From: a virus
Taxonomy: Monodnaviria > Loebvirae > Hofneiviricota > Faserviricetes > Tubulavirales > Inoviridae
IMG/VR virus record: IMGVR_UViG_2531839409_000002
Reading direction: 5' to 3' (one strand)
DNA: 9,661 nucleotides
Shown: positions 1 through 9,000 of the stretch, piece by piece
Position numbering within the stretch: position 1 is the first letter of the stretch
Layout: every line of letters starts with the position of its first letter
Position numbers: made by a program

Positions 1-3000
1 ATGATTTTGAATCACTGTCGATAGTAGCCAGTTGACGGCCAGTGTCAACGATTCCCGCCAGATTCTGCCATCCTTACCATTGGTGCGCATAATGTGCGAC
101 TCGTTATGTTGAAAAGGCCGCTGCGAAAATGGCCTCCGCAGCGGCCTCTTTAGCATAACGTCATTGTGCGAACCAATTAATTATTTCTTGTCTAATATAG
201 TACTGCTTATATTAGAATTCTTAGCTGTAAAAAGCATATCTGCTTCTTGGTATATTTCACCTGAACCACCACTAAAGTTAAACTCGATGTTTAGGTCATT
301 ATAAGTAATGCTTGGAGAGTATTTTCTGTTTATTATAATATAGCCAACTGAATTTGCAGGAACTTCAACCCTTTCTTTCGGTTTTTCCATAAGATATCCA
401 TTATCATTAACAAATTCCACATTGTATTTCTTATACACCCTTATTTCTTCTTCTTCTCTTTTCTTTTCATCTTTATAATCAAATGTATCAACATGTTCGG
501 AAATATATTGAAAGTTTTTATATATTCTCCATCCGCCTGAAACTTTCAGTGCTTCTGATGTTTTATTAATTATTCTAAATTTGAACATTATTTGATTTTT
601 TTCTATCTTGGCATCTATTATTTCAATAGGGTATTCATTCGCTCTTAGATTGTAATTTTCAGTTATCAGTCCATTACCTATAGGATTAATCGAAAGTCCA
701 GAATTGTACATATTGTTATAAATCATGTAGTTATATGCTTTCAATGGGCCCGCGAGAGGGTTGTCTTCTGTTTGGATACTGATGACCATATAACTGAAAA
801 ATGCAGCAAAAATAGCACCGCCTAAAATAAAAGAACCTGCACTCGGTGGCACTGAGTCTTTTGAAAGGTATGTTTTCCCGTCAGTATCTTCTGATCTTAT
901 GGAAGGCATGGTACTTTTATCAAGAACTCTTGTTCCTTCAATCAAGAGCACCATGGATATTTTTTTATTTGCTAATATTCTATCTATCTTCACAAAAGAA
1001 CCTTCGGTAGTTGCATCATGATCACTTGCAATTACAGTACAAGACATACCGTTTGGGACTTTTATTTCTACATTTTTTTCTTTATCCTTACCTTTATTAA
1101 ATACTGATGCATTTATTACTATTGCATTGTCAGATATTGAGGTTTTACTCAAGGAGTTCCAACAGGATAAGTAAAGTTGTCTTTTCCTAAATATAGATAA
1201 AAACTTATTGAGGACTAATGCCACAAAAAAAGAAGTAACTACTTTCAATGTATCAGTAATCAAGTCCGGCATCTTTTTTCTCATTTTACTTAAAATCCAG
1301 TGTTTTAACTGATCAAAGATGGTCAGATAAAATGTAAAAATTTAGTATTTGAATATTACCCTAGTTAACCTAGGGTAATATTATATCAATAATATGAATT
1401 TCTTCGGTGCCACCAATAAAGCAGACCGTATCCGACGATAAGAATTCCAAAAAACATCAGAGACATTCCCCAGCCAGTTCCGTACCACGAAACCATATCA
1501 TCGAAAACCAACCCACCCATTTCACGTACTCCGGCAGCTTCCTTAAGAATTGGTTTGAATACCGGAATCAGAAGGGCGATCGCCAGTGGGGCACCCCAGC
1601 GAACAAGACCTGTTTCCATTTTGATCCCGAAAAAGATCCCCGCACCGACAACAAGCAACCAGACTATCAGGCCAGGCGCAGTTTCCAGTGCTGTTTGCCA
1701 TTCAACATCGAAAGTTTTCATTAACCAGGCAACAACTGCCAGACAGAAAGCAAATACGCCCACGACAACCAATTCAACGCCGCTTGTTTCGTTATTTCTA
1801 CTCATCATTTTGATCCTTTTTCATTGTTCAAAATTCGCACAATAAAGAACGTGCAGTGTTGGTAATACTGCACGTTTGTCTCATTCCTGAGACTGTTAAT
1901 CCTTTTACTCTTCTCCAGACACCGCTTTTTTCATAAACATTTTAGTACTGTAAGTGTATGAACTTAAGGCAGAAACCTGCCTTGCGAGTGCCAGAATATC
2001 TTGTTTTTCCAGTGTCCTGATGTTCCACACGATGAAATTATGTGCGTTAGTGGTTTCTTCATCAGTATATCCATCCGCAGAAGTGATTAGCTTCCGCTCG
2101 GTAGCTTCTTCTTTAACATCAAGAGCATAGCCATAAGCTAAGGTGTTTAAGTCTGCACCCGTAATTTTAGCTATCTGAATGATGTCACTGAATTTAGGTT
2201 CAGTTTTGCCGGACGCTATCCTGACCAGCGTACTCACGCTAATGCCAGTCTTCTCGGCCAGTTCTTCATAAGTCGAGTGTTCCAGAATTACCTTTTTGAT
2301 ACGTTCTGCTCTCTGTTTGTCCGCCATAACTTCATGCTCATTGTTGCCCATCTACTTGGCTCCATCTTAACAGTGGTTTTTCAATAGTTAGATTTGATGC
2401 TCATTTTTGACAATTTAAACATTGCAAATGTATTGACTGTCAGATCTGAGCATATTACATTGTGACCATTCAATCTGCTCACAAATGACTATTGACACAT
2501 ATTTTGATGGGTGTGACTACTTATGATCGACTGGTTTACCGGAATCCTGCCTTGCACACACCGACCGTTACCGGCTGGTAGTGTCGTCAGCGTCGATGCT
2601 GACGGTGCAGTGGAGTGGGAAACAGTAAAACGGTTGACCGTTCGCGGTTCGCATGAGTCCACAATGAAAGTAAGGTCTGTTGGATCTGATGGTGAAGGTC
2701 GGGCAACACATCTCTACATTGACGGTAATCCATCAAAGTTTTTGCAAGGTCACTCTGTTATCGGTTCCGACGATTTGCAAGGGTTGGTGTTAACAGCTTA
2801 CGCCAGAATATTGGCATTACTGCATATTCCTCATGATCTACCATCCTATCGGCAGGTCATGGAAGGGCAATTTAAGATCTCGCGCATCGATATCAATTAC
2901 ATGTATTCATTGTCAACATTAGAAAATGTCCGCGCATGGTTATATGCCGCAGAATTTAAAGCTAAAACTCGCCACGGTCGCGCCTGTGGTAAAGGTGGCA

Positions 3001-6000: not shown

Positions 6001-9000
6001 TTATTAACTTGTTGCCTTTTACAAACGAATTTAACATCGGCTCTCGTTCAGCATCCTGCCCCGTTGTTGAATTCAGCGTGTTTAATCACCAGTACAGAAT
6101 TGACTCCCATTGTCCGTTAATTGAGCAGAACAGAAGCGCCGTAGAAACCATATTTCTGATTATATGGGGATTTGTTGCGCTCCGTATTATTCTGAGTGCC
6201 TAAAGGAGTGCAACTATGTTTGGGATTCTGATTAGTGCATTAAATACTTTGTTAGGTTTTGTATTCCGGTCATTGATTATTAAATTCGTCGTATTCTTTG
6301 CGCTGTATTTTGTAGTCCAGGGCTTCGTTGAAATCCTTGTTGAGTTACTGCCAGATTCAAGCAATCTCTCATCGCTGTTTGCCAATTTATCAGACGGATT
6401 CTGGTACTTCATTAACCTGAGTAAATTACCACAGGGGATTAGTATGATTATCTCCGCAATGGCTACTCGTTTTATTATTCGACGTATTCCTGTTATAGGG
6501 TGAGTTATGGCTATTTCTGCATATATTGGCATACCCGGCTCAGGAAAAAGTTATGAAGCCGTTTACAATGTCATTATTCCGGCATTTACCAGCGGCCGGA
6601 GAGTTGTGACGAACATTTATGGTTTACAAAAAGATAAAATCACCGAACGTTATCCTGATGCAACGGGAGAAATTATTGTTGTGGATAATGATGATGTGCT
6701 TAAAGCAGATTTCTTTCCTTTTAAAGGTGGGGAAGGGAGCTTTTGCCAGTTTGGTGATTTAATTGTTATTGATGAAGCATGGCGAATCTTCGGTAGCGAT
6801 AAGGATATGACGGCTGAGAAGAAATCATTTATTGCTGAACATCGTCATTTTACGCACCCTGAAACGGGTATTAGCTGTGATTTGGTTATTGTAAATCAGT
6901 CACTTTCTAATATTGCTCGCTTTCTGAAAGACAAAATAGAAACAACTTACCGGATGCGCAAGCTGAAAGCGTTGGGCCTGAATAATCATTATTGCATTGA
7001 CGTATATTCAGGCCACAAAATCTATAAAAGCAACCTCGTCACCAGTTATCGCAATAAATATAACCCTGATATTTTTGAACTTTACAAAAGTTATGAAGGA
7101 AATAACGGTAATGAAAAGCAGACAGATAAACGCCAGAGCATCTGGAATTCTGGCAAAGTCAGGTTCTTTCTTGTGCTTTTTCCATTGATGTTTATCGGGT
7201 CAGGCTGGCTGATTTACTCATTTTTCAGCACGTTTGGCCGAAGCGATCCCTCGCCAGATTTGACTACAACAGATGTACGTGATGCGGCCATGTTTCGTTC
7301 TTCCGCTGCTACTCCAGCACCAGATACTCCCTCAGAACCAGCTGAACCGCCACTTTCAACCGAGTGGCGTATATCAGGGAGAATGACCAGTGAAGGCAGG
7401 GCGTTTGTGATTCTTGTTAACGGTGCCGGTGTTTTGCGTGCCGTTCCTGCATCCAGTTTTAATTACAAAGGGATGTTGATGAGCGGAATTATTGATGGTG
7501 AGCGTGTGACGCTTTATACGGGGAAAAAATAATGAAAAAGATTTTACTCGCATTAACGCTACTATTTTCTTCATGTGCTTTCGCAGGGTCAGAGCTTGAA
7601 TTAAATAAAGTCAAGCTACCGGAGGCTATTTCTCTTATTTACAGTGAGGTGCTTAAAGTCCCGTATATGCTAGATCCACAGCTTGTTAATGATGAACGAA
7701 TGATTACATTCAGGTTAACACCTGATATTGATGAACGGGAATTTGTAACCCGTTATCTTGGCAATATGAACATTCGAATATGGACGAAAAAGGGTGTTGA
7801 TTTTATCGCGCCCTATACGCCGAAAGAGCCGGTTAAGCCACGTTATACATGGACTTATACGCCTCAGTACCGTTCTGTTGCTTACCTGTCTGATATTCTT
7901 GGCGGCTACGTTTCAGGCTCCTTCAATAACAGTGGAGCCGTGATTTCTGACGATTCGCTAAAAGGTTCATCAGGGGCAAGCAACTACATCAATCGAACCG
8001 GTGATATTCTGGTTTATTATGGTACGAAAGAGGATATCGCCATCCTGAAAACACTGGTCACTTCGCTGGATACGATGAGTGATGAAGTGGTTGTTTCTGG
8101 TTATGTTTTTGAGGTTCAGACCTCGCAGTCTGACGGCTCCGGCATTCTTTTAGCGGCTAAAATTCTGTCTGATAAATTCAATATTTCAGTTGGTGCTGCC
8201 GGACTGGATAATTTTATCAATATTCGAACCGGCTCCATTGATGCCATTTTCAATCTGCTGAAAACCGACAGTCGTTTTACTGTTGTCAGTGCGCCACGAC
8301 TGCGGGTAAAAAATAATGCCTCAGCGTCTTTTTCAGTCGGCTCTGATGTGCCAGTACTGGGCAGTGTTACGGTGAATAACAATACGACAACGCAATCCGT
8401 TGAATATCGTTCCAGCGGTGTTTTGTTTAACGTGACGCCATCAATCAAAAGTCGGACAATGGATCTCAAGATTCAGCAGCAGCTTTCCAACTTTGTGACC
8501 ACTGAAACCGGCGTCAATAACTCGCCAACCCTTATCAAGCGTGATGTAACAACCGAAGTCAGCCTTGCAGATGGTGATATTATTTTACTTGGTGGCCTTG
8601 CTGAACAGAAAGACAGTAAGGCCAGTTCCGGCTGGAGCTTCTTCGGTTCCCGTACCAGTGAAAGCAACAAGACTGATATTATGGTGATGCTTCAGGTCAG
8701 AAAGGTTGACCGGAGCAGGGCGACGCCCCGCAGCGCCGCGAGGAGCGGTGAACTGTTCCGGGACAACCTGAACTGATTGTATGGATTTTTATTATGGCGT
8801 TAACTTTTATGGGGTATGAACAGTACGACATCTTCTAGGTATTCAGTTACTTAGAGGATTTATTATGTCTGTAAAAAATAAGGCGCGTGACCGACTTCCC
8901 GGTGGACGCCTTAAGTCTTATCGTCGTGTAGGTTCACATTTTGCCAGTTGTGCCAGATGGTTTGATAAATCGCCGTCCTGGTATCGCAATATGATGATGA

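Follow-up and report, generated by a model that had tools for sequence, protein, structure and literature searches.

The 9,661-nucleotide (nt) stretch of DNA considered here, IMG/VR virus record IMGVR_UViG_2531839409_000002 (hereafter the window, meaning the whole stretch at its full length), is in our view, with a probability of about 90%, one complete 9566-bp genome unit of a temperate filamentous phage (Inoviridae) of the CUS-1/YpfΦ type, caught across a phage-phage junction in either a replicative circle or a tandem prophage. We hold with the same confidence that it is an intact, assembly-competent phage genome. The element is one already described as CUS-1/YpfΦ; the present copy varies in its cargo, RefSeq genomes already include its exact sequence, and the residual novelty lies in a small conserved open reading frame (ORF), s27, in a candidate cis-acting block and in annotation corrections. 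A sequence-only reading of the window had correctly picked out a temperate filamentous phage equipped with an export channel of its own, which integrates through the host system for chromosome-dimer resolution. The CUS-1 prophage of Escherichia coli O18:K1:H7 was reportedly described by Gonzalez et al. in 2002, and YpfΦ, or CUS-2, of Yersinia pestis is said to go back to Derbise in 2007 and Chouikha in 2010. Both CUS-1 (in E. coli K1) and YpfΦ (in Y. pestis) have been linked to modest virulence or fitness gains.

What does the window encode? From 2523 to 8776, its plus strand is an uninterrupted run of ORFs in the order of the Ff phages, namely genes II (with a likely internal X), V, an 83-amino-acid (aa) gene, VIII, a terminator, III, VI, I and IV, and the eight core genes receive full-length family assignments from Pfam and PHROGs with E-values far beyond chance. 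The order II, V, small coat, VIII, terminator, III, VI, I, IV that had been read from the bare sequence is thus intact, and profile searches for the Zot, secretin, Rep and coat families returned matches, although the Pfam coat model Phage_Coat_B matched pVIII only weakly and under threshold (18.8 bits, cut-off 23.5 bits). The genes of this run are as follows.

2523-3575, + strand: gII, rolling-circle replication initiator (Phage_CRI 1-231/232, 1e-73; G2P_X_C 1-87/88, 4e-34)
3261-3575, + strand: candidate gene X, from an in-frame internal ATG at 3261 (M247 of pII) with GGGAG 7 nt upstream
3587-3904, + strand: gV, single-stranded DNA (ssDNA)-binding protein (Putative_G5P 1-108/108, 1e-52)
3907-4158, + strand: p83, 83-aa membrane protein in the gVII/gIX position (phrog_3679; C-terminal hydrophobic segment, residues 56-80)
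4193-4426, + strand: gVIII, major coat protein, 77-aa precursor (phrog_2186 'virion structural protein', 6e-29)
4438-4460, + strand: intrinsic-terminator-like hairpin after gVIII, 10 pairs and then TTTTACTT (TTTTAC)
4491-6203, + strand: gIII-like adsorption protein, puvA of CUS-1 by position (phrog_3942, 4e-253)
6216-6503, + strand: gVI-like minor coat protein (DUF2523 1-79/80; phrog_974)
6507-7532, + strand: gI, Zot-family assembly ATPase (Pfam Zot 3-193/197, 2e-26; phrog_197, 7e-94)
7532-8776, + strand: gIV, phage-encoded outer-membrane secretin, 414 aa with signal peptide (Pfam Secretin, 1e-24; phrog_1012)

The family phrog_17464 (a 100-aa 'replication protein') matches pII residues 247-346 across its whole length, and the coincidence of its N-terminus with the internal ATG at 3261 suggests a gene X. 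The hydropathy profile of pVIII reveals a 23-aa signal peptide ending at TFA-AEG, after which the protein runs from an acidic N-terminus through a hydrophobic core to a basic C-terminus, and some RefSeq versions of the gVIII product are named 'major capsid protein'. The hairpin and T-run that follow gVIII recur at the matching site in four relatives (L016, L017, L023 and L024). By its position, p83, which is kept in relatives at 48-58% identity, is presumed to be a minor coat or assembly protein. The III-VI-I region shows the expected position, a signal-like N-terminus, a Gly/Ser-rich linker, a C-terminal anchor and DUF2523; searches of PDB sequences with pIII, pVI, p83, s27 and pVIII returned nothing meaningful and no match to the solved Ff virion proteins, and gI contains no convincing pXI-like internal start. 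The overlap of stops and starts that had been claimed for the operon, as a sign of tight translational coupling, is literal in two places, at the one-base overlap of gI and gIV (TAATG, 7530-7534) and where s27 overlaps the start of gIII. The other junctions are short gaps of 11, 2, 34, 12 and 3 nt with Shine-Dalgarno-like sequences.

The identity of the phage follows from its near-7-kb core, from the repressor gene to the right end, which is nearly identical to the CUS-1/YpfΦ lineage. Window positions 1825-9661 are 99.6-99.7% identical in nucleotide sequence to the YpfΦ prophage of Y. pestis NCTC5923, of which a pattern scan of species-representative genomes found two adjacent copies; pII, pV, p83, pVI, pIV and the repressor are 100% identical to the NCTC5923 proteins, and pIII, pI and pVIII are 99.6%, 99.4% and 97.4% identical, respectively. 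Likewise, E. coli UTI89 (O18:K1:H7) shares the gene layout, with 99.3% identity across 87% of the window. CUS-1 and YpfΦ are themselves 99% identical over 7.1 kb, and YpfΦ is a secreted, infectious filamentous phage of Yersinia and E. coli with 1200 x 8 nm virions containing (+) ssDNA; disruption of YPO2274, YPO2277 or YPO2279, genes of replication, morphogenesis and secretion, leads to loss of its particles (PMC4266046). The phage is common: matches to the window were found in 674 records from 657 of 5426 complete E. coli genomes, and at least 80% of the window is present in 87 of these 5426. At least 1000 contigs encode exactly this pIV protein, and their source names include Salmonella and E. 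coli. A megablast search of the window against a phage collection that contains neither YpfΦ nor CUS-1 gave no match, and tblastn against the same collection recovered distant inoviruses only. An 8700-bp sequence, L013, was considered as YpfΦ and rejected; it is a different variant whose repressor is only 40% identical, and the true YpfΦ comparison is NCTC5923.

Two further copies were seen outside these settings. A tandem array of the phage, 99.4% identical, lies in a 248-kb IncFIB/IncHI1B plasmid of Klebsiella pneumoniae (L025; NZ_CP132684.1, 61942-79444), where the left-arm cargo is again different and consists of two unrelated ORFs. A 10.1-kb contig (L027; CAAFII010000047.1) carries the phage (99.5% identical) with E. 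coli-type dif flanks and is binned in a metagenome-assembled genome named 'Ruminococcaceae bacterium', which is probably a binning error.

The ends of the window are informative.

1-95, + strand: left copy of a 95-nt terminal direct repeat, equal to 9567-9661; phage right end plus GGTGCGCATAATGT
9567-9661, + strand: right copy of the repeat, ending at the dif crossover point ...GGTGCGCATAATGT

Because bases 1-95 are repeated exactly at 9567-9661, the window must comprise a single unit of 9566 bp whose reading crosses a junction of phage with phage, in a circle or a tandem array. The matching junction is found between the tandem copies of E. coli TUM14759, which has three such copies at dif; a circular record of 9565 bp, distinct from these, matches the window at 100% identity. 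Across 13 loci, all attL, attR and tandem junctions inspected show phage and dif parting at ...GGTGCGCATAATGT. RefSeq labels the 9565-bp circle 'pMTY14759_untypable1' and annotates it as a plasmid, which would make the element a small autonomous plasmid. We give this reading almost no credence: the record contains all the genes of an inovirus, neither a plasmid replicon nor a mobilisation type is present, and the identical sequence is integrated in tandem at dif within TUM14759. Most plausibly, the circle represents the replicative form of the phage or was produced from the array during assembly of the sequence.

Is the phage functional? We compared it with two relatives whose proteins are 64-89% identical to those of the window, namely L017 and L016, the latter matching contig L028 of Brenneria alni. 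Against these, the core genes show no frameshift, stop or truncation. In both relatives all genes have the same order and length, and the ratio of nonsynonymous to synonymous substitution rates (dN/dS) is 0.04-0.45 (0.04-0.06 for gII), these values being approximate as dS is saturated for several genes. Freedom from frameshifts and truncations on alignment was a test that the sequence-only reading had set beforehand for its claim that the element is no defective remnant; the claim survives it, with core proteins 97.4-100% identical to those of YpfΦ.

The alternative is a cryptic or defective prophage, whose genes look intact while the copy yields no virions and persists as chromosomal cargo. 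A number of observations speak for it or otherwise weigh against an intact, productive phage. The element sits at dif and is single-copy in many E. coli genomes, for example MG32, where a single prophage adjoins hipBA; CTX-type integration has been described as irreversible (PMC4246890), and the CTX model predicts no phage release from single copies. The published titres of YpfΦ are low (PMC4266046), and virion production by the present variant would follow by analogy with that near-identical phage. Degraded copies occur elsewhere (L011, L018, L019 and L026): the end of gIII and all of gVI are missing from L011, gIV is truncated in L018, gII has an insertion in L019, and K. spallanzanii has fragments only. 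The 9565-bp circular record could be an assembly artefact of a tandem array, and the chromosomal copies of TUM14759 carry many annotated frameshifts. Finally, the putative roles of p83, s27, pVI and pIII are assigned from position, size and hydropathy. We nevertheless consider a defective prophage unlikely. No core gene has a frameshift, stop or truncation, functional YpfΦ has proteins with 97-100% identity to these, the clade as a whole is under purifying selection, and the window spans a phage-phage junction of which a 9565-bp circular copy is recorded. Since degraded copies are found elsewhere, decay is detectable when it occurs.

The TUM14759 chromosome deserves a separate remark. The three tandem copies at 2520000-2549000 (L022) contain many frameshifted pseudogenes and the 9565-bp circle is clean; the frameshifts are probably long-read consensus errors in the repeat, which would make the prophage look falsely degraded.

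How would an intact phage of this kind leave the cell? The pI protein contains the Walker A motif GIPGSGKS, a Walker B-like LIVIDE and one transmembrane segment (residues 218-240). The pIV protein matches phrog_1012, 'assembly (protein IV of M13)', over 1-402/403 (8e-138), and a phmmer search of PDB matched it to f1 pIV (7ofh) at 1e-10, residues 146-371 against 136-380, and to the secretin domain of GspD chains at 3e-16. Together with the Pfam Secretin match, these results confirm that the element encodes a gene IV-like secretin of its own. The contrast that had been drawn with CTXφ is also correct and is already in the literature, in which CTXφ is extruded through the host secretin EpsD (PMC3089046). 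A 2023 paper describes the YpfΦ protein as a shortened secretin that may act with Zot in phage export, and an AlphaFold comparison for it has been published there (PMC10354491).

The database names of these two genes invite another interpretation, in which the region is a virulence island with a Zot enterotoxin and an accessory type II secretion system secretin, GspD, instead of a phage assembly machinery. RefSeq uses 'zonular occludens toxin family protein' and 'type II secretion system protein GspD', and a possible toxin role of YpfΦ Zot is discussed in the 2023 paper (PMC10354491). However, pIV scores 103.9 bits with the GspD equivalog model TIGR02517, whose cut-off is 351.35, and covers only model positions 311-585 of 600, while its phrog_1012 match runs end to end. 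Because pIV fails the equivalog model, the RefSeq name 'GspD' is an over-annotation of a phage pIV-type secretin. Similarly, the FCIGRL peptide of Vibrio cholerae Zot is absent from the pI sequence, gI and gIV stand in the canonical I-IV position with a one-base overlap downstream of gII, gV, gVIII, gIII and gVI, and knock-out of YPO2279 abolishes phage particles (PMC4266046). We therefore find a virulence island very improbable. The product names 'GspD' (7532-8776) and 'zonular occludens toxin' (6507-7532) are misleading, and the latter is the pI assembly ATPase.

What is the basis of integration? Repeat analysis and folding located an attachment site of the CTX type at the left end of the window.

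82-174, site 1 on the + strand and site 2 on the - strand: CTX-type attP, an inverted repeat supported by junction sequences
82-114, + strand: attP site 1, GGTGCGCATAA-TGTGCGACTCG-TTATGTTGAAA
115-147, between sites 1 and 2: GC-rich stem-loop
148-174, - strand: attP site 2, GGTTCGCACAA-TGACG-TTATGCTAAAG

As ssDNA, positions 71-185 form a forked hairpin whose XerC and XerD arms are paired around a bulged centre (-31 kcal/mol, z = -6.7; matched by 0 of 200 shuffles), whereas the folds obtained for 2340-2530 and 9500-9661 are no better than those of shuffled sequence. In E. coli and Y. pestis copies attL is a hybrid site and attR a perfect 28-bp dif. The sequences of attL, attR and the tandem junctions agree with prediction in E. 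coli and Y. pestis as well as in a plasmid of Klebsiella. The inferred targeting of dif is thereby confirmed, with an insertion adjoining hipBA, a hybrid left site and a perfect 28-bp dif on the right. A search of the window for the 28-bp dif with at most 3 mismatches was negative because the spacer of the phage site is 11 nt long and the end of the window falls mid-dif. No integrase or recombinase family was found among the 13 larger ORFs of the window (s27 was compared with PHROGs only). YpfΦ and CUS-1Φ are listed as CTX-type Xer-dependent elements (PMC4246890), for which XerC performs the first strand exchange, replication completes an irreversible integration, and prophage output is by rolling-circle replication (PMC4246890; PMC4266046). 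The description of the element as self-sufficient thus holds for assembly and export; it fails for integration, as there is no recombinase and host XerCD is needed, and for release from a single copy under the published CTX-type model.

Related attachment sequences occur on plasmids. The right junction of the Klebsiella plasmid array (L025) reads GGTGCGCATAA-TGTACG-TTATGTTAAAT, that is, a plasmid dif-like site with a different central region. A 71-bp stretch of the window, 105-175, recurs at 89-94% identity in conjugative plasmids, over 400 in number, from E. coli, Klebsiella and Salmonella, and covers the attP stem-loop and the inverted dif-like site only. In one IncFI plasmid (L004; NZ_AP025663.1, 15644-15714), it lies between a truncated IS200C tnpA and a minus-strand STM4504/CBY_0614 gene that matches the PADLOC candidate PDC-S32 at 4e-9. 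The 71-bp stretch looks like the left end of another Xer-dependent element with different cargo.

Taking as its starting point the gene content and its intactness, the identity with YpfΦ/CUS-1, the att architecture, the tandem arrays and the one circular record, all observed here, we propose the following life cycle. For virion production and the Xer steps, for what the small proteins do and for where the origin lies, it draws on the literature or on inference. First, pII would nick the (+) strand and drive rolling-circle replication, and pV, probably together with pX, would sequester the ssDNA. Second, pVIII, pIII, pVI, p83 and probably s27 would insert into the inner membrane, from which the pI ATPase and the phage's own pIV secretin would extrude the filament without lysis. 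For integration, the inverted dif-like sites of the (+) ssDNA would fold into the forked hairpin, which host XerCD would recombine with dif; a single XerC-mediated strand exchange, completed by replication, would leave the left site hybrid and the right one an intact dif. As the prophage is double-stranded and so has lost the hairpin site, new genomes would then come from rolling-circle replication across tandem copies or from an episomal replicative form. Finally, the divergent helix-turn-helix (HTH) repressor would control the operon.

The earlier gene list omitted the probable internal gene X (ATG 3261) and a further small gene, s27.

4477-4560, + strand: s27, hydrophobic 27-codon ORF MEIELWKLGSLLWGIVSAYVVILGLRG, with GAGG 5 nt upstream; it lies just behind the terminator and overlaps the gIII start

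The s27 ORF is kept, in sequence and in the position of its stop, in L013, L016 (2801-2884) and L017 (4301-4384), and a homologous 24-codon ORF (…WGMLCAYVVVRG(L/I)SG) stands at the matching site in the distant inoviruses OR148981 and PP511688 (L023 7397-7471 and L024 6391-6465). Within the overlap, dN/dS is 0.05-0.09 in the s27 frame versus 2-3.5 in the gIII frame; selection acts on the s27 frame and not on the overlapping gIII frame. None of the E. coli, K. pneumoniae or Dulem virus 53 (PP511688) records inspected annotates s27, some Y. pestis genomes and Inovirus D_HF2_82 (OR148981) have an annotated version of 40 aa, and no PHROGs family matches it. By position, size and hydropathy, s27 is a candidate small virion or assembly protein.

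The start of gIII is a related question. The pIII protein has a signal-like segment, KRLTVYSFIFSFLWVSFPRYSYS, at its N-terminus and a membrane anchor at its C-terminus, with a linker rich in Gly, Ser and Asn as well, and puvA has been assigned to the receptor-binding virion protein (review PMC4266046). A gIII ORF of 570-572 aa is kept in L016 and L017, with N-terminal homology in L023 and L024. RefSeq starts the gene at GTG 4641 (520 aa), and both 520-aa and 570-aa versions are on record. The start is probably 4491 or 4512; that of RefSeq appears to lie 150 nt late and would remove the conserved signal-like N-terminus. The practical value of our analysis is mostly in such annotation, namely the 'GspD' and 'Zot toxin' labels, the apparently late RefSeq start of gIII and the omitted small gene.

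To the right of gIV lie two further ORFs and a conserved non-coding block.

8865-9113, + strand: 82-aa ORF in the YPO2280a position (74-100% in all relatives; dN/dS 0.14)
9180-9236, + strand: invariant non-coding 57-nt block with a hairpin of about 19 bp, identical in the window, L013, L016/L028 and L017
9310-9507, + strand: 65-aa ORF in the YPO2281 position (phrog_6642, 1e-50; a RefSeq coding sequence)

The 57-nt block is identical among relatives whose coding dS exceeds 1, and we regard it as a candidate (+) origin or packaging signal. A pII origin appears more likely here than upstream of gII because L013 has a 99% identical pII next to an unrelated repressor and intergenic region. A second non-coding block, 9269-9279, is likewise 100% invariant in the window, L013, L017 and the relative from Brenneria alni. 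Comparison with the f1 sequence pointed to another possible (+) origin, the Ff-like nick-site motif TTTTTCAATAGT at 2378-2398, which was rejected as neither L016 nor L017 conserves it. Rfam and tRNA scans of the window found nothing. At even odds, we suggest that the clade shares a module in which s27 is an extra gene beyond those of published annotations that, together with p83, could be the functional counterpart of the Ff tip proteins pVII/pIX and be needed for virion assembly, and in which, separately, the 9180-9236 hairpin could be the pII origin or packaging signal. If so, the position of the 57-nt hairpin would set the portion of a tandem array that progeny genomes receive.

The left side of the window, on the minus strand, contains the repressor and the cargo.

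181-1284, - strand: cargo ORF, 367 aa, with a predicted membrane segment (phrog_17621; GC 29-34%)
1386-1808, - strand: 140-aa hydrophobic protein (phrog_4174, 1e-84), present in CUS-1-type copies, not in YpfΦ
1905-2351, - strand: HTH repressor in the RstR position (Pfam HTH_3, phrog_3557), transcribed divergently from gII

The left arm from attP to the repressor (96-1850, GC 29-34%) is a variable cargo slot, in which YpfΦ has YPO2271/2272. The 367-aa ORF is 29% identical to its UTI89/CUS-1 counterpart (369 aa) and absent from YpfΦ, and searches of Pfam, NCBIfam and PADLOC gave no match for the cargo ORFs. YPO2273, the YpfΦ gene, has been described as an RstR homologue (review PMC4266046). Within the repressor gene, a stretch of 123-135 bp at 2178-2312 is 92-97% identical to a plasmid HTH gene, the plasmids being of 40-57 kb, with one of 205 kb, from E. 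coli, Salmonella and Shigella.

Finally, how does the phage compare with known systems? The closest records in the phage collection are those of two uncultured inoviruses, D_HF2_82 (OR148981) and Dulem virus 53 (PP511688), whose pIV is 48-49% identical. Like the window they have adjacent genes I and IV, a G5P-type pV and an s27-like ORF before gIII; unlike it they lack the invariant 57-nt block, and they are much more divergent. The Ff phages (M13/f1/fd) share the order II(X)-V-small-VIII-terminator-III-VI-I-IV, a secretin of their own and pIV homology. Unlike the window phage, they are not temperate and have neither repressor nor attP; they carry gVII and gIX between V and VIII, where the window has one 83-aa gene, complemented by a 27-codon gene after VIII, and their solved virion proteins have no detectable sequence similarity to its coat proteins.

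CTXφ of V. cholerae resembles the window in XerCD integration at dif through a folded ssDNA attP, in an RstR-like repressor, in tandem prophages and in a core order of small protein, coat, pIII-like, pVI-like and Zot. In contrast, it is without gIV and exits through host EpsD (PMC3089046), and the cholera toxin genes occupy its right-end position, with no homologues of the window's end ORFs listed (review PMC4266046). YpfΦ shares with the window the tandem prophages, the intact dif regenerated at the right end and the inverted XerC/XerD sites; it differs in that YPO2271/2272 are replaced in the window by the 367-aa and 140-aa ORFs, in a unit of 8.7 kb as against 9.57 kb, and in host, which for the window is E. 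coli. CUS-1 of UTI89, lastly, is like the window in gene order and in its dif/hipA insertion site. Its pV, p83, pVI, pIV and repressor are identical proteins, its pII, pVIII, pIII and pI differ by 1-3 amino acids each, and its attP spacer differs from that of the window by one base (TGTGCG versus TGTACG).

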